The notes: generated by a model from the letters alone, not told the origin. A stretch of 15,844 nt of DNA from Candidatus Hodarchaeota archaeon (GCA_029856365.1 JAHQWW010000085.1:1-15844), one strand, 5' to 3'. Shown: positions 3,842-14,873, numbered from the stretch's first letter. Program-made: numbers and translations.

Positions 3842-6800
3842 TTACTTTCCTTTGTCCACTAACTGTAGAGATGACCCTTTTAACATACTCATAATCCCTG
3901 AGAGATAAGAGACAAATTTTTCGTCTGTACTGGCGAAGCCTAGGGTATCGGGCAATACTAGGACAGCACTCTCATCTTTAATAGCTAAAAGCCCTGATAG
4001 TTTCGTAGCTTTTAGTTTATAGAAATTTATATTGACTGGTTTACCAACTTCTGTAGCCCATTTTTTACCTTTTTTAGAGAAATCAAAGTTTGTAATAACA
4101 AAGATACGCTTTTCTGAAGGTATAGTTTTAAGGTCAGCTACAGATAAGAAGGTAGGATTCGATGTAACGATTGTTACTTGTCTGGATGCGGTTTTAATCA
4201 TGTCTTGTACGAACTCATTCTTTGCTTCATCAGTAGCTAATTTAATTAAACGAAGAGAATCTATCGGTTTAACACGAGAAAACTCAGTAGCAAACGCTTG
4301 TAAGATTTCTATTTGTTGCTTGTTTGTGTTTATTAAATTGTTTAAAAAATCTTGAGATCTATTAAGTACCTCTGAAAATTGATTATCGAGTTCTTCTATT
4401 ACGTTTTGAGTAATTTGATTTGTCTTTCCTGTGAGCTCAAGCGAAGTTTTATTAAGATCAGTATTGTAAGAGTCAAGATTTGCATTAAGACTCTTTCTAA
4501 AATCATTGCTTGTATTTTCAACTGTCTCTGATAGTTCTTCCTTGAATTTCGTAAGCTGATCTAGTAATTTTGCATTCTGTTCAACGATAATAGCCGACAA
4601 TTTAGAAAATAAACTTTTAATTTGTTCTCGTGATTTCTCAACCTCTTTAATGGTCATCTGAATACTATCAGTCAAGTCTACGGATAATGTTTCGATATCC
4701 TCAGCCGTTGATTGTGAAAAATTAAGTAATATTTCATTTAATTCAGTTTTCATTTCAGAAAAGTCGAGATTTTGACTTTCTTCTTTCAGATATTTGTGCA
4801 ATTGATTTGAAAGCGCTGTTTGTGAGCTGGAAATTAAATCTCCTAAATCTTCCAAATAAGAAGATAGATCTTCTGCTGTTTGGGTGTGAGCTGCTTCATA
4901 TGATGTTACTAATTCGGGGATCAATTGTTGGTCAAATTGCTCTATGTGCGCCTTCAAACTTTCAGAAATCACAGATTTCAAACGTTTGTTTGCTAGTTTA
5001 ATCTTCTTCTGGATCTCACGTAATCCAAGGATATCATCTTTAGAGGTTTCAAGATCTAAGATTGTACTGAAAGATGTTATTGTTTCTTCAATATTTGTCT
5101 GAACTATTACTTCTAAATTCTCGAGATTTGCCTCAATAGCTTTATCTATGGCATTTGATACATCCTGTAACTTTGTTCTGCCTTTTTCCATTTCCTTATT
5201 CCAGTATTCTATGAGACTTGCTAAGTTTTCCTCTGTTTTCTCCTCTAACTCATGATTTGAACGTGAACGTTCCTGAATTAAATCATCAAAAACCTGAGAA
5301 AATTCCTGAGACTGTTCGGGGATTTTTATTTGGAATTCTTGATCTTGATGCACAATAAAATCTTTAATTCCTGTACTTAATCTTTCTACAGTCTCAGATA
5401 ATTCACTTTTTAAAGTTCCTATCTCTTCTTGAACTACTTTGGTAGAATTCTCAATCTCAGACGTTACAAAACCCGTCGTAACATTAATCTGGTTTTCTAG
5501 ATCTGTTAGGGAGTCTGTATAATAGAGATCGATGTCTTCTGTGATCCTATTAAGACTATTAGTTGCACTCTGTAAAGAATCAGTTACTAATGTTGTAAAT
5601 TTATCTCCGCTATCTTGAACCTGTCGCAATAAGTTATTAACCTCCCCAATAGTAGACTCTGAATAACCGCTATAATAGGCTTCAAGTTCCACCATAGCGT
5701 CTTTAACTTTTTTATTCTGATTTATAACATCTGATTCTATCTGATTTATAAAAGATAAGATATCACTTGTTCCTCTTTCTTGATATTTTTCAATATTCGA
5801 TTTTTGTAGATCAATTACTTCTGTGGTTGTCTGATGACTCTCATTGATTAAATCAGCGACAACTTTCTTACTTTCTTCAATAGTTTTGTTCAGGTCAACT
5901 GTAAATTTTGAAAGTTGTTCCACAGTTTGACCTGAAAATGAATCTATTATTGTATTCAGGTTGATTTGTTGATTTTCACTATTTTTTTCTATTTGATTGA
6001 GCTGATTCTCTAATTCTAATGTGAATTCAGTTTTTATTTGACTAAAACCCTCTTTAATGACTTCAAGTGTTCTATCTAGATGGCTTTGTAAAGCTGTATC
6101 TAATTGAGTAATATATTCAGCAGAATCTTTTTGATTTTGAGTAAAAATATGATCGATATCATTTTTCACTTGAGTGACCGAAACTTGAAGTGCTGATTCC
6201 ACATTGGTGGTAATATTCTCTGAAGAAAGCCTTTCAATGATATCCCCATAACCTCCTTCAATTGAGTTTATAACCTGTTGAAAGTTCCGGGCTATAGCTT
6301 CAAGCTCAGTGTTCATAACTTTAGCTCTTTGTTCAAATCTAAGCTCTACTTTATCCAAATATGCTTCTTGAAGATTAGAAACGGTACTATTTAATTGTGT
6401 TGTAGAGCTAATGACTTTTTGAATTTCATTTTTGCTTTCTTCCAAAGTCTCCTTAAATGAGGTCTCAATTCTCTTTTGTGTACTTGATAAAGAGCCATAG
6501 ATATCTTCAACAGGTTTTAACGATGATTCACTCATCCCGTCCTGGATTTCCATAACAGAATTGTTTAGGGAGTTTTTTAACAAAGTTTTAAAATTATTAG
6601 ATTGCATAGGAACCGATATCAGTATGTTTCCAAGTAATTGTACAATTGATTGAGATAATCGTTGAAAATGACTGACATCCATGTCTTTTCTTGCAATTGA
6701 TTTTTCAATCGTAGTATGAAATGAATGGATAAGTCCTTCGAATTCTTTACTCTGTTGGGTTAACCTTGTTTTTGCAGAACGCCGAATTTCTTCCATGATA

Positions 6801-8023
6801 TCAGTAGTAGCTTTTTGTACACGACGATAACTTGTTTCCATTGTGTTTAAATCGGCAGACAAGTGAGCTTGAAATTGTCGTTTAAATGTCTCTGAAACGG
6901 TCGTTAATCTTTTTTCTGAAGACAACTTGGTTATTTCTGTATTTAAAACATCCAAAGGTGTTCTTTGTTCTTGGATTAATTCAGAAGCATTCTCAACAAA
7001 CTCTTTGAATTCGGTTTTTATTTGATTTGAACTATTTTTAATAGCATTATTTGTTTGTTGTTTCACTTCTTCAACTGCTTGGTTGATCTCTATATCTATT
7101 TCGTTGGCTAGGTTTTTCACCACAGCCTGTAAAACTTTAATTACCTCTTCTCCTAAAGTTACTTGTACCCTTTGACGAACTTCTTTTAGAAACTCTTTCT
7201 CCTGTTTCCAAGATTCCTGCAGACCTGTGTTAAGATTTGTCTTAAAATCTTCTGCAAAAGATTCTGTATTAGCAAAAAATTCTTGAATCTGATTTGTAGA
7301 CTCCACTTCTATCGCTGTGACAACATCTGACAATTGAGATTGAATAGATGTTATTTTCTTTACAGCTACCTTGATAATTTCGGATAATTCTTGTTCATAT
7401 TTGGCAATAGATCCCTTAAGAGTTCGTGTCCCTGTTTCAGGGATAGTTTGGAAACCACCAAGAGCTTTCAGCCATTCTTTTTCAAAATTTGATGATTCAG
7501 AAGACAAAGAGGTCTGGAATTCCGTAAGTAAATCAGAAGACCCTGTAGAAAACAACGATAACATTGACTCTGCAAGCTCATCTGTCCGCTTTGATCTTTG
7601 TTGTTCTATTTCATCGAATTTTTCTTTCAAGGATGTTTGTAGCATATTACTTGAAGCCTTAGATTCCTCGAACTGTGTTTCAAGGGATTCACGAAGTTTT
7701 TCTAAGTTTCCATCAATTGATTTTCGATATTCTTGAAATATTTCTGCCTGATCCTTTTTATTAGTTTCAATCTCTTTGGAACTATTGTTAAACATAGTTA
7801 TGACGTTTTCTAGTGGAAGAGATTGAAAATATATTCCTGTTTCTTCATCTAAACGAATAAATCCTTTAGTAAGTAACTTTGAAAGGGCTTGTTCTGCTTT
7901 TTCAACATTTAAGCCTGTTGCTAGTAATAATTCCTGTTTCGTTTGGCTACCAAGCCTCACCAATGATAAAAATACTTCATTCTCGGTTTTGGATAATGAA
8001 TATCCATTTTCAGATCCTGACAT
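3842..8023 (-). CDS. Giant helical/coiled-coil protein with an N-terminal TrmB-like winged HTH and a C-terminal TrmB effector/PLD-like domain
   Basis: The N-terminus LSKTENEVFLSLVRLGSQTKQELLLATGLNVEKAEQALSKLLTKGFI...YFQSLPLE fits the TrmB wHTH pattern. About 1180 aa of E/Q/K/S/T/L/I-rich amphipathic helix follow, with no Cys and few Pro. The last ~140 aa (DMIKTASRQVTIVT...LLAIKDESAVLV...GFASTDEKFVSYL) fit the TrmB C-terminal PLD-like fold. No Walker A motif. Confidence 0.8.
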   Translation of the reverse strand: MSGSENGYSLSKTENEVFLSLVRLGSQTKQELLLATGLNVEKAEQALSKLLTKGFIRLDEETGIYFQSLPLENVITMFNNSSKEIETNKKDQAEIFQEYRKSIDGNLEKLRESLETQFEESKASSNMLQTSLKEKFDEIEQQRSKRTDELAESMLSLFSTGSSDLLTEFQTSLSSESSNFEKEWLKALGGFQTIPETGTRTLKGSIAKYEQELSEIIKVAVKKITSIQSQLSDVVTAIEVESTNQIQEFFANTESFAEDFKTNLNTGLQESWKQEKEFLKEVRQRVQVTLGEEVIKVLQAVVKNLANEIDIEINQAVEEVKQQTNNAIKNSSNQIKTEFKEFVENASELIQEQRTPLDVLNTEITKLSSEKRLTTVSETFKRQFQAHLSADLNTMETSYRRVQKATTDIMEEIRRSAKTRLTQQSKEFEGLIHSFHTTIEKSIARKDMDVSHFQRLSQSIVQLLGNILISVPMQSNNFKTLLKNSLNNSVMEIQDGMSESSLKPVEDIYGSLSSTQKRIETSFKETLEESKNEIQKVISSTTQLNSTVSNLQEAYLDKVELRFEQRAKVMNTELEAIARNFQQVINSIEGGYGDIIERLSSENITTNVESALQVSVTQVKNDIDHIFTQNQKDSAEYITQLDTALQSHLDRTLEVIKEGFSQIKTEFTLELENQLNQIEKNSENQQINLNTIIDSFSGQTVEQLSKFTVDLNKTIEESKKVVADLINESHQTTTEVIDLQKSNIEKYQERGTSDILSFINQIESDVINQNKKVKDAMVELEAYYSGYSESTIGEVNNLLRQVQDSGDKFTTLVTDSLQSATNSLNRITEDIDLYYTDSLTDLENQINVTTGFVTSEIENSTKVVQEEIGTLKSELSETVERLSTGIKDFIVHQDQEFQIKIPEQSQEFSQVFDDLIQERSRSNHELEEKTEENLASLIEYWNKEMEKGRTKLQDVSNAIDKAIEANLENLEVIVQTNIEETITSFSTILDLETSKDDILGLREIQKKIKLANKRLKSVISESLKAHIEQFDQQLIPELVTSYEAAHTQTAEDLSSYLEDLGDLISSSQTALSNQLHKYLKEESQNLDFSEMKTELNEILLNFSQSTAEDIETLSVDLTDSIQMTIKEVEKSREQIKSLFSKLSAIIVEQNAKLLDQLTKFKEELSETVENTSNDFRKSLNANLDSYNTDLNKTSLELTGKTNQITQNVIEELDNQFSEVLNRSQDFLNNLINTNKQQIEILQAFATEFSRVKPIDSLRLIKLATDEAKNEFVQDMIKTASRQVTIVTSNPTFLSVADLKTIPSEKRIFVITNFDFSKKGKKWATEVGKPVNINFYKLKATKLSGLLAIKDESAVLVLPDTLGFASTDEKFVSYLSGIMSMLKGSSLQLVDKGK

Positions 8024-8031
8024 TAAAACAA

Positions 8032-8038
8032 CACTCCT
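8032..8038 (-). promoter_or_regulatory. Shine-Dalgarno site for the giant TrmB-like gene
   Basis: The minus strand reads AGGAGTG 8 nt upstream of the ATG at 8023. Confidence 0.6.
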
Positions 8039-8081
8039 AGTTATTTTATTGTGATATTAAATTGATTGAACCAGTTGAATA

Positions 8082-8783
8082 CTAATCATATTCTTCAAAT
8101 ATGCGTCTTCCCACTCGAATCATTGTAGATCCTTCTTGGAGGGCAATGACATAATCATTACTCATACCCATTGATAATACTTTCATCTCAACGTTTGAAG
8201 GGCAAACGCTATATTTCATAATATTCTCATAAATTATACGCATACGTCTAAAATAATCGCGAGTCTCTTCTGGTGAAAGGTAAGGGGCAATCGTCATAAG
8301 TCCTTGAATCTTTAAATGTGAAAAAGAACCTATTTCTTGTAAAACATCCTTTAATGCGTCTTCACTAGGAGAAAAACCAAATTTAGACCCATTTTGACAA
8401 ATATCTATTTGAAGTAGGCATTTAACGACAATATTTTGATCAGAAGCTCGCTTTTCAATCTCTTTAGCTAAAGATAACCGATCAAGTGAATGGATCAAAG
8501 AAAATTTTCCAAGTATTTTTTTGACTTTATTTCTTTGAAGATGCCCAATGAAGTGCCAATTGGCCTTAGTCTTCCTACACACTTCGATTTTCTTAAGAGC
8601 TTCTTGTACACGGTTCTCTCCAATAATCGGTCTTTCCAATCTATTTAAAATCCGTGCAACCAATTCAACTGGCTGATCTTTAGTAACCATGACCAGTTGG
8701 GGCCTTTCTTTGCCATGCGTATATTGTTGTAACAATGAGAGAATGTTATAATAATTCTTGATTATTTGGTCTTCTTCAATCAC
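8082..8783 (-). CDS. yggS: YggS/PLPBP family pyridoxal phosphate homeostasis protein
   Basis: VMVTK (PLP-binding lysine), GENRVQE, WHFIGHLQRNKVK, IHSLD, SKFG, GLMTI, LSMGMSNDY and GSTMIRVG. GTG start. Confidence 0.95.
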   Translation of the reverse strand: MIEEDQIIKNYYNILSLLQQYTHGKERPQLVMVTKDQPVELVARILNRLERPIIGENRVQEALKKIEVCRKTKANWHFIGHLQRNKVKKILGKFSLIHSLDRLSLAKEIEKRASDQNIVVKCLLQIDICQNGSKFGFSPSEDALKDVLQEIGSFSHLKIQGLMTIAPYLSPEETRDYFRRMRIIYENIMKYSVCPSNVEMKVLSMGMSNDYVIALQEGSTMIRVGRRIFEEYD

Positions 8784-10123: not shown

Positions 10124-11179
10124 TTAACTCAAATAACTAGGCATCCAATCAAGCAGATAGTCTCTTCCGATTTCTCTAAATTCACGTTTTATTTGGTCAA
10201 TTTTAGTGAAGAATCCTTCTCTCATGGACTCGAGTTGAAGATTTTCTAGAATTTTATCTAACTTAGGTTGGATGTTTTTTATACCCGCAATAAGGTTAGA
10301 ATAATTATCCAACTTCTTTTCAGTTAATAATTCATTATTATAAAGCTGAATCTGAGTGGATAATCCACCTGAAAGGATTTTGAGCCCTTCTTCTTTGTTA
10401 AAACTATTTGGATCATTACATGAAGCTAATAATTGATCAAAACATTCTTTATTGGGTAAAAATACATTTCTTGCTAAAACACCACGAAGGTACATTTGTG
10501 TGGTTCTTTTCGCAAGAATTATAGAGAAAGGAATCGAAGTCATAAACTCTGTCATTCGCATTTTCTCACTATCCAAGATGGAACCTGATATGTCTTGAGC
10601 TTTCTCATATAGATCTAAGGGGAGGACTATTCCTGTTATTTCACGATAATCAGTTACTATAGAGCCTGGTCCTAACTGGAATTTCACCCAGTATATCCCT
10701 AGTCCTGTTATAAGAAAGAACGGTTCACCTGTTGTTTCTTCAAATCCCGATAGTGCAATATTAGGTAAAAAGACAATTGTATCTTGAAAGATTTTCTGCA
10801 CTGGTTGGTTTAAATAAAATCCATTGAAATGAGATCCAAGCAGTTTCCGCCATGAAGGAATGAACAGGAGTTGATCTAAAACCCCAAAAACTGATTTTCG
10901 TAGTTCAATAATAGTTTTATCAATTTCTTTAATACGTTGATCTATTTTATCAAATATAGATTGTCTGTCATAGACCCCGAGACGATAGGGATAGTCATGG
11001 TCTTCTTGAAAACGTTTGAATTCGCGAATTGAGATACCAGTAATCTCCTCTAGATCAGCATAGGATAATTTCCGCTCATAATATGCTTTGAGTCCCTCAA
11101 GAATTTTTTTCTCACCTTCAAATTGGGAAATATTCTCTGTAATCTCTTTTTCGCGTAGAGACATTTGGATTCTTTCCAA
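10124..11179 (-). CDS. Hypothetical protein with a UPF0175-like HTH near the N-terminus and an unassigned alpha/beta domain (true start may be the ATG at 11164)
   Basis: Open frame of 351 aa with no long competing ORF. LKAYYERKLSYADLEEITGISIREFKRFQEDHDYPY resembles the UPF0175 pattern (Y...kiS...aaelaGis..eF). I do not recognise the remainder. Confidence 0.7.
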   Translation of the reverse strand: MERIQMSLREKEITENISQFEGEKKILEGLKAYYERKLSYADLEEITGISIREFKRFQEDHDYPYRLGVYDRQSIFDKIDQRIKEIDKTIIELRKSVFGVLDQLLFIPSWRKLLGSHFNGFYLNQPVQKIFQDTIVFLPNIALSGFEETTGEPFFLITGLGIYWVKFQLGPGSIVTDYREITGIVLPLDLYEKAQDISGSILDSEKMRMTEFMTSIPFSIILAKRTTQMYLRGVLARNVFLPNKECFDQLLASCNDPNSFNKEEGLKILSGGLSTQIQLYNNELLTEKKLDNYSNLIAGIKNIQPKLDKILENLQLESMREGFFTKIDQIKREFREIGRDYLLDWMPSYLS

Positions 11180-11316: not shown

Positions 11317-12369
11317 TTATGACAAAAAAACAGTTCTAATTTCTTCCCAAACCTCTGATGCTTGTTGAGGTGTAGCAACCCCTCGAATCAGCACATTTCC
11401 TCCCTTAAAAATAGTCATTAATATGTTCTTTGATACTGAAAGAGTAAGAGAATGAGTTCCCATCTTTGTTATAGTATAATTTTCTTCCAATTGAGATTTA
11501 GTTTGAATTATATCGAAATTTAGGTTCATTTGAGGAACTAGCATAAAATTATTTTCTCCACAAATATCTAATGCAACCCATTCTTCAACAGGGATTTTAC
11601 TAGCGTTCTTAGAAACTCCCGAGCAAATAGAGCAAGTAGGGTTCTTTTGAATTGGAATTTTATCGAAGCTTAGGCTCTTTAGGTCAATGAATAATAAAGA
11701 TCCATTTATTGATGATTCTCCCTTAAGCAGAATTTCAATGGCTTCATGAACCTGAATACCTGTTAAGATTGGAAGTATTGCGGGATGAATCCCTGTGATG
11801 TCGCAAGACGCTAATTCGTTATCATCAATCCCATGATATAAACAGGAAAAACACGGGGATTGTCTATCTAAATTGAATACTGTTATATTCCCAGAATGTG
11901 CACTAACACCGCAGAAAATGAAAGGAATTCCTCTTTGAAGACATGCATTATTGATAATTCGTCGTGTTTCAAAATTATCTAGTGCATCAATAACAACATC
12001 AATCCCATCCAATAGATCATTAATGTTCGCATTTCCAATATGACATGCATGAGTATCAATTGTCATTGATGGATTTAATTGTTTAAGTCGATCTGCAGCA
12101 ACTTCAACTTTTGCACGATCTAAATCAGTAATGGTATATAATGGCGTTCTATGTAGATTGGTACGCTCTACTATGTCGCGATCGACTATTCTAAGATAAC
12201 CTATGCCCATTTCAGCTAATAAAAGGCTTGAAAATGTCCCTAAGCCACCAATACCAACCACTAAAATTCGAGCTTGTTTTATCTTTACTTGTCCAGTTTC
12301 TCCAAAATCAGCCAAGACAATTTGTCTTGCATAACGAAGTTTTTCATCATCTGATAACAGATCTTTCAT
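11317..12369 (-). CDS. MoeB/ThiF/HesA family E1-like adenylyltransferase with a C-terminal Cys-containing TBP-like domain
   Basis: RYARQI, GIGGLG nucleotide-binding loop, DRDIVERTNLHRT, DALDNFETR, Zn pairs CFSC and CSIC, and an active-site-region Cys in ASCDITG. The extension reads LDICGENN...TIFKGGNVLIRGVATPQQA. Confidence 0.92.
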   Translation of the reverse strand: MKDLLSDDEKLRYARQIVLADFGETGQVKIKQARILVVGIGGLGTFSSLLLAEMGIGYLRIVDRDIVERTNLHRTPLYTITDLDRAKVEVAADRLKQLNPSMTIDTHACHIGNANINDLLDGIDVVIDALDNFETRRIINNACLQRGIPFIFCGVSAHSGNITVFNLDRQSPCFSCLYHGIDDNELASCDITGIHPAILPILTGIQVHEAIEILLKGESSINGSLLFIDLKSLSFDKIPIQKNPTCSICSGVSKNASKIPVEEWVALDICGENNFMLVPQMNLNFDIIQTKSQLEENYTITKMGTHSLTLSVSKNILMTIFKGGNVLIRGVATPQQASEVWEEIRTVFLS

Positions 12370-12437: not shown

Positions 12438-14873
12438 TTATTCTCCCTTAAAAGGAGTAAGGTTCAATTCAATTTTCTTCCAAAATTGTGTTACTTCACG
12501 CTCTAGATCGCTGCATATCAATTCTCTTGGGCTTTCTTGATAATAGTAGGGGGGAAAATAGCTTGCATAGCGAAGAGAAGCAAAGCGACGTCCAATAAAA
12601 ATGATAATACCACGATCAGAAGAAGTACGAATTAATCTACCTGCAGCTTGAAAAGTCCGTGTCAATCCAGGGAACTGATAAGCATATGCAAACCCATTAC
12701 TAAACCTCTCCTCATAGTATTGTTTAAGTAGCTCTTGTTCAAAGGTTACTGTTGGTAAACTAGGCCCAATTACAATAACACCATCCAAAATACCTGGAAA
12801 ATCAATGCCTTCAGCAAAAATCCCAGCTGTGACAGCTAACGCTAATACATGAGGAGAAGTTTTTAGAGTATCGATAAAATCCTGACGATCAGATTCTTGC
12901 ATTGTAGGCGCTTGTTTTAAAACAATCAAGTCTTTACTAGGTGTTAGAAAACTAGCTACTTTTTCTGCAAATTTGAAAGAGGGGAAGAAGACAAAATATT
13001 TCCCTTGTTTTATCTCCAATACTTTTTGAATTAAATCAGCAATATCTTGGAAGTGATGCCGTCTTTGTTCATAGCGAGTATCAATATTCGGAAAAACTAA
13101 GATTTTACGATTGTGAGGTGAAAAAGGTGATGGAAAACGTTTATATACAGTTTTATCAATGGGAAGTCCGAGTAAATCACGATAAAACGGGAATGGTGTG
13201 ATAGTGGCAGATATTGCAACTGATGACTTGAAAAAAGTCAAGCGTTGCTGAAGAAATGAGGAAGCGTCTTTGCATAATATTTTTATTTTCCCTTCGTGAA
13301 CGTAGTACAAAATCGAGAACTCTTCAGCATTCTGTGCAAGCGCTGCGGTTTCCACGAAGTCACGGAGATGATAATAAAATCTGAGAATGGGATCATCAGG
13401 CCAGTAAAGTTCTCTTTCCACCAAAAATCGCACATATCGGGTTACTGCTTCTTCAAACTGAGTCATAATCTTCTGAAATGAATTAAGATGGATATTTTTC
13501 AGAAGATGAGTAGAGATTTCAGTACCTTGTTTAGCACGAAGATTTCGAAAGATCCTCTCTAATTTTGGAGGGAGAAACTCAGGTAAGGGAATCCCCTTGA
13601 TCTTCTTTTTGAGTTGCTGCATCGATCGTTTAAAGACGAAGACTTCTCCCTGAGTCAAAGCGTGAGAGTAATAAGATAAACTCCTAGACACTAAATTGTG
13701 AGCTTCATCTATTATCAAATAAAACAAGGATTTTTTCTGATGAGGATCCCCAAAAAAACGTTGTAACGATACTCGAGGATGGAATACATAATTATAATCC
13801 CCAATAATAACATCTGCCTCTAAAGAAATATCTAAAGATAATTCAAAGGGACAAAAAGCTTCTGTAGTTAAAGCTTCTCTTTCAATAGATTCTGGATCTA
13901 TTACTCCTCGCTGTTGGACAAATTTTTCAAGAATTTCGTCAGGATAATGCTGTAGATAGTTTTTTAAAAAAGGACAATAATCTTCATGGCAAAAATAAAT
14001 TGCATTCTGACACATCTTTTCTTTTGCCTTTAATGTCAAAGCTAGGAAATCTACTCCTTGTTTGTAAAATAAATCAAGAGTTCTTTCCACTATATGTCGC
14101 TGAGTAGCTTTTGCAGTTAAAAAGAAGATCTTTGAATCCTCAAGGATAGCTTTAGGAATTAGCGGATAGAGGGAGACGACTGTTTTCCCCAAACCACTAG
14201 GAGCTTCCATTATAAGACATAATTTTTTATCCACAATTCCCCTAATCTTCTGGACTATTTCTTTTTGATATTTTCTATAATGAAAAGGAAAATGTAAGCG
14301 AGATAATGAGTTGATCTTCTTTTCAAGGCGAATCTGTTTAACCTGTTCTTGTTGAAGAAGTTTTGTAATTTTCTCGATTACAAATTCAGACATATCCTGA
14401 TATGGAATAGGGACAACATGTTGTTTATTATCGAAACGGTTAACCAAAATTAATTGCAATGATAATGAAGGCAGCCCAGTTTCAATTTGGCTTAACATCC
14501 ATGCATAACATTGAAGTTGTAGCCTGAATGGTTTGATTCGTGGATCATCAGGGGAAGCAGAAAACTGCTTTAAAAAAATTGACTTTATTTCTTCAATTTG
14601 AATAGACTCAGATGTACGAGCAACTAGATCTATCCTCCCGCGAATGATAACCCGCCAGTCTTGAACTGAGAACTGATATTTGACAAAATATTCAGCCTCA
14701 TAATTAATATTTTCCCTTTGTTTTTGATTCTGTATCTCTTGATGAATTTCCTTGCCTACTTCTGCATTTTTAAAAGAAATTTGAGCTCTAGTAAACTTAG
14801 GAATCCCAAGAAACGAAAGATCTCTTACACTAAGTTTAAGTTCTTTCTTTTCACGATTAAACCGAATAGTCAA
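12438..14873 (-). CDS. XPD/Rad3/DinG family Fe-S ATP-dependent DNA helicase with an N-terminal PD-(D/E)XK (RecB/Cas4-like) nuclease domain
   Basis: Nuclease motifs SVRDL, GKEIHQEIQ, GRIDLV, IEEIKS and QLQCYA. Helicase motifs: Q motif YRKYQ, Walker A APSGLGKT, four Fe-S cysteines (KEKMC..FC..YCP...FCPFE), DEAH, SAT, FAEGIDF and QAAGRLIR. TTG start. Confidence 0.93.
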   Translation of the reverse strand: MTIRFNREKKELKLSVRDLSFLGIPKFTRAQISFKNAEVGKEIHQEIQNQKQRENINYEAEYFVKYQFSVQDWRVIIRGRIDLVARTSESIQIEEIKSIFLKQFSASPDDPRIKPFRLQLQCYAWMLSQIETGLPSLSLQLILVNRFDNKQHVVPIPYQDMSEFVIEKITKLLQQEQVKQIRLEKKINSLSRLHFPFHYRKYQKEIVQKIRGIVDKKLCLIMEAPSGLGKTVVSLYPLIPKAILEDSKIFFLTAKATQRHIVERTLDLFYKQGVDFLALTLKAKEKMCQNAIYFCHEDYCPFLKNYLQHYPDEILEKFVQQRGVIDPESIEREALTTEAFCPFELSLDISLEADVIIGDYNYVFHPRVSLQRFFGDPHQKKSLFYLIIDEAHNLVSRSLSYYSHALTQGEVFVFKRSMQQLKKKIKGIPLPEFLPPKLERIFRNLRAKQGTEISTHLLKNIHLNSFQKIMTQFEEAVTRYVRFLVERELYWPDDPILRFYYHLRDFVETAALAQNAEEFSILYYVHEGKIKILCKDASSFLQQRLTFFKSSVAISATITPFPFYRDLLGLPIDKTVYKRFPSPFSPHNRKILVFPNIDTRYEQRRHHFQDIADLIQKVLEIKQGKYFVFFPSFKFAEKVASFLTPSKDLIVLKQAPTMQESDRQDFIDTLKTSPHVLALAVTAGIFAEGIDFPGILDGVIVIGPSLPTVTFEQELLKQYYEERFSNGFAYAYQFPGLTRTFQAAGRLIRTSSDRGIIIFIGRRFASLRYASYFPPYYYQESPRELICSDLEREVTQFWKKIELNLTPFKGE

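Follow-up and report, generated by a model that had tools for sequence, protein, structure and literature searches.

The window analysed here, a stretch of 15,844 nucleotides from Candidatus Hodarchaeota archaeon (GCA_029856365.1 JAHQWW010000085.1:1-15844), carries on its minus strand a long open reading frame (ORF). Its product of 1393 residues, called below the rod protein, consists of two terminal domains resembling those of TrmB and, between them, about 1170 helical residues without cysteine, the rod. The features of the gene are listed in Table 1. The ORF at 3842-8023 is a real gene, because 29 full-length orthologues (43 to 78% identical, 1389-1418 residues long), as well as more distant copies with identities down to 36%, were found without frameshifts. 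The orthologues are labelled Heimdallarchaeota, Hodarchaeales, Hodarchaeota or Promethearchaeota, and the gene was present in all 21 genomes of the family to which the window belongs, again at identities as low as 36%.

The protein has a mass of 158 kDa and a pI of 4.8; it contains no Cys and 12 Pro, six of them inside the rod (positions 195, 356, 472, 504, 902 and 1036). Neither a Walker A pattern nor a transmembrane segment was detected in it (the highest hydropathy over 19 residues was 1.08), and no ATPase family was returned when it was scanned against Pfam and NCBIfam, the latter contributing nothing further. An earlier note on this DNA, made from the sequence alone, had described a Cys-free helical middle with about six prolines, lacking ATPase motifs and transmembrane segments, and had considered an Asgard host. 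All of this was borne out, the host being an Asgard archaeon of the Hodarchaeales type.

Table 1. Features of the rod-protein gene, ordered from the 5' end of the gene; positions are those of the window
Feature	Position	Strand	Basis
Spacer of 58 nt after the upstream yggS gene, with an AGGAG-like site and an AT-rich box	8024..8081	(-)	sequence only
Whole gene, 1393 aa and stop	3842..8023	(-)	ORF translation; 29 full-length orthologues
Predicted TrmB-type winged helix-turn-helix, residues 9-72	7808..7999	(-)	Pfam PF01978 and family profile against the PDB
Recognition helix, residues 39-53	7865..7909	(-)	profile alignment to 3qph and 5bqt; charges
Rod arm 1 (amphipathic helix with hendecad repeat), residues 75-652	6068..7801	(-)	
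Joint zone of arm 1, residues 292-369, with breaks in the helix, jumps of the hendecad phase and pLDDT <50	6917..7150	(-)	
Second joint of arm 1, residues 455-504 (Pro472, Pro504)	6512..6661	(-)	
Centre/tip, residues 653-664, conserved K-E-G-F at 657-660	6032..6067	(-)	AF2 helix break, covariation centre
Arm 2 counterpart of the second joint, mirrored, residues 806-861 (Gly806, Gly851)	5441..5608	(-)	
Mirror joint zone of arm 2, residues 962-1036 (Gly1000, Pro1036)	4916..5140	(-)	
Rod arm 2 (amphipathic helix with hendecad repeat), residues 665-1250, read as the antiparallel partner of arm 1	4274..6031	(-)	
Predicted PLD-like domain of TrmB type, residues 1251-1393, basic	3845..4273	(-)	AF2, Foldseek, VIA, charge
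Basic loop K-K-G-K-K-W, residues 1317-1322, invariant, specific to the ~1390-aa class	4058..4075	(-)	
Degenerate HKD strand S-G-L-L-A-I-K-D, residues 1343-1350, catalytic positions without His or Lys	3974..3997	(-)	

The two terminal domains

Residues 9-67 match the Pfam TrmB family PF01978 with 28.5 bits, above the cut-off of 25.6. When the PDB was searched with a profile (A6) of N-terminal regions drawn from many length classes of the family, the top matches were TrmB (3qph, E = 2.7e-9) and TrmBL2 (E = 1.6e-8), the next winged helix-turn-helix (wHTH) reaching only 1e-5. By these comparisons the N-terminal domain is a TrmB-type wHTH, located where the earlier note had placed it (residues ~9-72). 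The label 'DNA-binding protein' given there fared less well. In the profile alignment to 3qph and 5bqt, Glu44 and Gln45 occupy the positions of TrmB Tyr50 and Asp51, which are important in DNA recognition (PMC4158304); the recognition helix reads E-K-A-E-Q, the wing is acidic (D-E-E), and the median net charge of the wHTH across the family is -2. The putative head of the protein may bind a polyanion through its C-terminal domain, or the wHTH may mediate protein contacts.

At the other end, an AlphaFold2 (AF2) model of the C-terminal 170 residues, built with an alignment of 60 sequences, shows an alpha/beta domain in the last ~140 residues (predicted local distance difference test, pLDDT, 91.4). 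Foldseek searches with this model were led by TrmB (E = 8e-8) and TrmBL2 (E = 3e-7), the phospholipase D (PLD) superfamily coming after. With VIA-align, the closest structure was TrmB 2f5t (Z 13.7, root-mean-square deviation 2.4 A over 123 aligned residues, corresponding to TrmB residues 110-244), followed by TrmB 3qph (Z 13.2), NucT and FAM83B (both Z 12.0) and TrmBL2 (Z 11.7). At the sequence level, no significant Pfam or PDB match was obtained for the C-terminal 170 residues, and a distant member of the family, P0097, scored 21.9 bits against Regulator_TrmB PF11495, for which the cut-off is 22.2, a link that is near-threshold and transitive only. As judged from the model, the fold of the C-terminal domain is that of the PLD-like domain in TrmB and TrmBL2, the first subdomain of PF11495. 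The sugar-binding beta-barrel subdomain of the sugar-responsive regulators TrmB and TrmBL1 is missing, because the chain stops after the PLD-like domain, the secondary structure of the model ending at residue 1385.

The strand that bears HxK(x)4D in PLD enzymes is occupied here by S-G-L-L-A-I-K-D. Because of this strand, and because residues 1240-1393 include no His at all, the sequence excludes PLD (HKD) chemistry, as expected by the earlier note, which had proposed a non-catalytic PLD/TrmB-like domain in this place. The net charge of the domain has a family median of +5 and a maximum of +12.

The hendecad rod and its centre

The hydrophobicity of the rod shows a Fourier peak at 3.66 residues (11/3), with a power of 24.7 for the single sequence and 32.6 for the family average (residues 80-1240), compared to a flat signal at the heptad period of 3.5, where the family-averaged power is merely 0.41. 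In sliding windows, the 3.66 period holds almost throughout the rod, and the 11-residue rather than heptad pattern that had been suspected by eye is thus real. Where the phase stays constant over long stretches, large hydrophobic residues fill hendecad positions a and e in 83 to 87% of cases, position h in about 50% and position d in 30 to 50%, while Ser, Thr, Asn, Gln and acidic residues abound at the remaining positions. Such a narrow hydrophobic stripe is more in keeping with a two-stranded coil than with a face that binds lipid. Searches of the PDB with the single sequence gave weak matches to apolipoproteins and ClpC-N only.

The length of the rod is under tight constraint. Among the 29 orthologues, indels occur at four sites only, with one to three residues each, and the spacer between the wHTH and the match to the C-terminal profile measures 1149-1153 residues in about 50 sequences. 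Mean column conservation is 0.67 in the rod, compared to 0.65 and 0.71 in the two ends. We also considered an internal duplication of the rod, and rejected it since arm 1 aligned with arm 2 in hhalign no better than did reversed or 11-block-shuffled controls. Between the long form and the 747-residue form of the family, hhalign gave a single colinear match driven by the C-terminal domain, which says nothing of how the rod grew.

Several lines of evidence place a centre of symmetry near residue 657. In an analysis of mutual information with average product correction (MI-APC) on 35 sequences, i+j=1314 ranked first of 2053 antidiagonals (z 5.4), followed by 1311 and 1317. Gly659, which lies at this centre, is 93% conserved. 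The AF2 monomer model of residues 75-1260 is all helix, with helices of up to 330 residues, and has a break at 653-658. Its best PDB matches are antiparallel hairpins symmetric about residue ~656, namely the chemoreceptor 2ch7 (Z 11.3) and the Smc arms 5xg2 and 5nnv (Z 10.5), these Z values describing the geometry of the model only. The pLDDT profile is its own mirror image (r = 0.86 at i+j~1318). Helix breaks, conserved Pro or Gly residues and zones of low confidence are likewise mirrored between the arms, residues 292-369 matching 962-1036 and residues 455-504 matching 806-861, which suggests two joints. Two other approaches to the register were discarded: in a palindromic correlation of the hydrophobic pattern, local periodicity dominated and 1314 was not singled out, and registers from local (70-residue) covariation were too noisy.

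Relatives with shorter rods were informative on this point. In a Loki-type subfamily (751-918 residues, with more than 70 cluster representatives of exactly 751), a conserved loop, aromatic, polybasic and flanked by Gly, coincides with both the covariation centre (i+j=681-684) and a break in hendecad phase. In seven length classes of this subfamily, the arms before and after the loop measure 254/251, 276/273, 294/291, 298/295, 316/313, 327/324-326 and 338/335 residues. Whatever one arm gains or loses, the other does too, around the conserved central loop, and this lock-step is the strongest argument for a fold-back. Symmetrical gain and loss of residues, leading to discrete length classes, is known from the hairpin arms of chemoreceptors (PMC5907407). 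The Loki-type loop itself reads G-F-F-W-M-G, then K-K-K-K-Y-K (P0163 residues 337-353, with relatives P0100, P0140, P0152 and P0159), a composition characteristic of nucleic acid-binding loops and of loops inserting into membrane interfaces.

The same rule was found within the genome of the window, which encodes three paralogues, with arms of 258/261 (760 residues), 583/587 (the 1393-residue protein) and ~657/654 (1533 residues) and a K/G-G-F-type motif at the exact middle of each. The shorter (L054:1477-3759:+, G000 contig 171) and the longer one (L056:1943-6544:-, G000 contig 88) share the order wHTH, hendecad rod and PLD-like end, and have rod periods of 3.62-3.64. We conclude that the rod has an antiparallel register centred on residue 657, and that equal arms are the rule across paralogues.

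Possible folds and functions of the rod protein

The observations to be explained are the two TrmB domains, the hendecad periodicity and the fixed length of what lies between them. We consider it probable that the protein derives from TrmB/TrmBL2 and is an intramolecular antiparallel hendecad hairpin of ~87 nm, with one TrmB-like head, acting as a passive spacer or tether. The dimerisation helix of TrmB/TrmBL2 would have been replaced by an antiparallel coiled coil within one chain, with arms of ~583-587 residues. At 0.15 nm per residue the resulting rod would be ~87 nm long, probably with two flexible joints. Folding back would join the N-terminal wHTH and the non-catalytic C-terminal PLD-like domain as one TrmB-like head, and would expose the conserved K-x-G-F tip at the opposite end of the rod. 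The protein would then be a structural element of fixed length rather than a sugar-responsive regulator, its head holding a polyanion (DNA or another) and its tip contacting a second partner. The earlier note had given a length of roughly 175 nm, or about half that if folded back; it is the folded length, with both TrmB domains at one end, that is favoured here, and a rod of 175 nm is less likely. With the domains at one end, a single-chain bridge between distant DNA sites becomes less plausible.

The most serious competitor is a homodimer in which two chains, both fully extended, pair antiparallel over ~175 nm; at either end, the wHTH of one chain would form a head with the PLD-like domain of its partner. 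We regard it as unlikely, and think it similarly doubtful that the protein, in this form, is an elongated TrmB dimer that could bridge two sites far apart. Several points weigh in favour of the dimer or otherwise count against the hairpin. The dimer helix of TrmB itself pairs antiparallel between chains (F81/I91', F84/L88'; PMC4158304). The hairpin and the homodimer expect the same covariation, monomer model and equal arms, so that i+j=1314 fits both equally well, and the mutual information is based on an effective sequence number of ~24. The AF2 model of the rod is of low confidence (pLDDT 61.8, predicted template modelling score 0.33). In the 1393-residue class, the hendecad phase continues through residue 657 (from 139 to ~115 degrees) with its amplitude unbroken, which suits an uninterrupted helix. 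The wHTH is acidic and lacks the Tyr of TrmB, and no neighbouring gene is conserved across classes. Nevertheless, we favour the intrachain hairpin, since in related subfamilies the exact centre is marked by an obvious loop, non-helical and flanked by Gly, and by a phase break; the high conservation of Gly659 and the helix break in the AF2 model point the same way, and a hairpin meets the same contacts more simply.

Other readings concern what the rod does. It may be a filament-forming cytoskeletal element comparable to intermediate filaments, with rods side by side in fibres and the TrmB-like head as anchor. The entire surface of the rod matches the globular domains in conservation, its length is rigidly fixed and there are several paralogues per genome, which would all suit such a role; the surface is however strongly acidic, self-assembly is without support, and paralogues of differing length equally favour a ruler function. 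We hold this to be rather improbable; it overlaps with the hairpin reading and is compatible with it. Very unlikely, in our opinion, is a surface binder of the apolipoprotein, perilipin or late embryogenesis abundant (LEA) type, in which 11-residue amphipathic helices would lie flat on a membrane or lipid instead of pairing. The 11/3 period, a match of Pfam Apolipoprotein PF01442 along the middle of the protein (E = 5e-17) and the hydrophobic, polybasic central loop of the Loki-type relatives speak for it. Yet the PF01442 match, at 62.6 bits, is below the cut-off of 90, the hydrophobic stripe covers roughly 2.5 of 11 positions, the rod has a net charge of -78, and Pro-punctuated 22-mers are absent; moreover, antidiagonal covariation and lock-step arms require that arm pair with arm. 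Least credible of all is a conventional TrmB-family transcription factor, sequence-specific, whose long middle serves merely as linker or sensor: the terminal domains are of the right type, but the sugar-binding barrel is absent, Glu stands in the place of Tyr50 in an acidic wHTH, and a linker would not hold its length within three residues and its column identity at 67%.

Comparison with known systems helps to delimit the hairpin reading. TrmBL2, a chromatin protein of Thermococcales (5bpd, 5bpi, 5bqt, 5box), has the same order of wHTH, helix and PLD-like domain, the latter without a sugar-binding barrel (PMC4877046). It differs in having 264 residues and one short dimerisation helix, compared to 1393 residues and two arms totalling ~1170, and its DNA-contacting Tyr is replaced by Glu in the rod protein, whose wHTH and whole chain are acidic. 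Binding to DNA and formation of filaments on it have been demonstrated for TrmBL2 and are hypothetical for the rod protein. TrmB of Pyrococcus furiosus (3qph, 2f5t) provides the best structural match of the C-terminal domain and the best sequence match of the wHTH, but possesses the sugar-binding beta-barrel, and a helix of ~30 residues stands where the rod lies. SMC, Rad50 and MukB also unite their N- and C-terminal parts by an intramolecular antiparallel coiled coil of conserved length, an arrangement that the rod protein would share if it is a hairpin; unlike them, it has no ABC ATPase head and no hinge or zinc hook, and a hendecad takes the place of their heptad-based pattern. Antiparallel helices, a conserved tip and lock-step arm lengths recall the hairpins of chemoreceptors (methyl-accepting chemotaxis proteins), one of which, 2ch7, was the top match of the rod model, but these are heptad-based four-helix bundles in membrane receptors, without sequence relationship to the rod protein, which has no MCPsignal match in Pfam. 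Two-stranded hendecad coils are described in archaea for the peripheral (stator) stalks of A/V-ATPases (PMC3293630, PMC6131620); in contrast to the rod, these are short parallel heterodimers. Finally, apolipoproteins A1, A4 and E (PF01442) share the 11-residue amphipathic periodicity, but the rod protein lacks their wide lipid-binding face.

Known members of the TrmB family, which are regulators or chromatin proteins, measure 140-360 residues. In the rod protein, their two domains would be carried by a coiled coil of ~87 nm, its length held within a few residues, and several paralogues of different fixed lengths occur per genome in many Asgard lineages. As a non-motor rod of fixed length with a head possibly binding nucleic acid, the protein is a candidate for organising the architecture of the cell or nucleoid in the archaea nearest to eukaryotes, an idea made testable by cultured strains and electron cryotomography. 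We may speculate, with little confidence, that Asgard archaea possess sets of ATP-independent 'molecular rulers' with SMC-like topology (~39, 87 and 98 nm in the genome of the window), the TrmB-like head sitting on the nucleoid or another polyanion and the tip on membrane or cytoskeleton, so as to fix distances between chromatin and envelope. In the Loki-type members, the tip in question would be the hydrophobic, polybasic loop. If true, the archaea most closely related to eukaryotes would have, in such sets, a primitive counterpart of nucleoskeleton tethers. That the arms grow in lock-step also provides a clean natural example of length evolution in antiparallel coiled coils.

Distribution in Asgard archaea and gene surroundings

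The architecture of wHTH, hendecad rod and PLD-like domain was found phylum-wide in Asgard archaea, in proteins of 750-2084 residues with a period of 3.65-3.67 in all. Named records include Candidatus Atabeyarchaeum (WXG46104.1), Candidatus Freyarchaeum (WXG40257.1) and Lokiarchaeota. The spacer between the terminal domains is exactly 501 residues in the 747-residue class, in spite of identities of 29 to 89%, and 662 in the ~910-residue class. The survey of rod lengths that the earlier note had called for thus shows that length is fixed within each clade, with several length classes across Asgard. No clear pattern was seen on inspection for a quantisation of spacers modulo 11 among the Heimdall-type classes.

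The C-terminal profile recovered only 60 clusters among 1.84 billion representatives, and the nearest Atlas clusters were from Promethearchaeota. At E<=1e-5 it matched in 154 of 399 Asgard genomes, a figure that is not a clean count since the query is biased to Heimdall-type members. A 731-residue ORF of a Loki-type family (f20) matches a confirmed member with its N-terminal as well as its C-terminal part. Two copies were found in unexpected places: a 551-residue fragment (P0036) labelled 'Gammaproteobacteria bacterium', with a C-terminal domain 69% identical, and a 46%-identical copy on a 3.4-kb contig (G080 contig 56) in a genome of another Heimdallarchaeia family. In both cases, a binning error seems likelier than gene transfer.

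No paper on this TrmB-like rod family was found in the literature. In the proteome of MK-D1, a cultured member of the Loki class, a 'TrmB family transcriptional regulator' (DSAG12_03376) is 10th by identification score with a normalised spectral abundance factor of only 0.15 (PMC11284389, Table 1). A high score together with a low length-normalised abundance would fit a very long protein, and DSAG12_03376 may be a long member of the present family. The 120 best matches included no named protein of MK-D1.

Within the family of the window's genome, gene order is conserved at all loci: a DegT-like gene is followed by yggS and the rod-protein gene, with a convergent AOR-like gene downstream. The yggS gene (pyridoxal phosphate homeostasis), at 8082-8783 on the same strand, lies 58 nt upstream in every one of these loci. 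This order was restricted to that family, and among 15 loci of different classes no neighbour was conserved, so that gene context offers no functional lead. Further along the window, all on the minus strand, an ORF of 351 residues (10124-11179), without significant Pfam or NCBIfam match, stands between the DegT-type aminotransferase gene and a ThiF/MoeB E1-like gene, and positions 12438-14873 encode an 811-residue protein in which an N-terminal PD-(D/E)XK or Cas4-like nuclease region is fused to an XPD/DinG-type helicase (DEAD_2, HBB, Helicase_C_2). The E1-like gene (11317-12369) encodes a ThiF/MoeB-type adenylyltransferase of 350 residues, nearly the full length of which is covered by NF009123 (long MoeB/ThiF subfamily), including a C-terminal extension past the ThiF domain.

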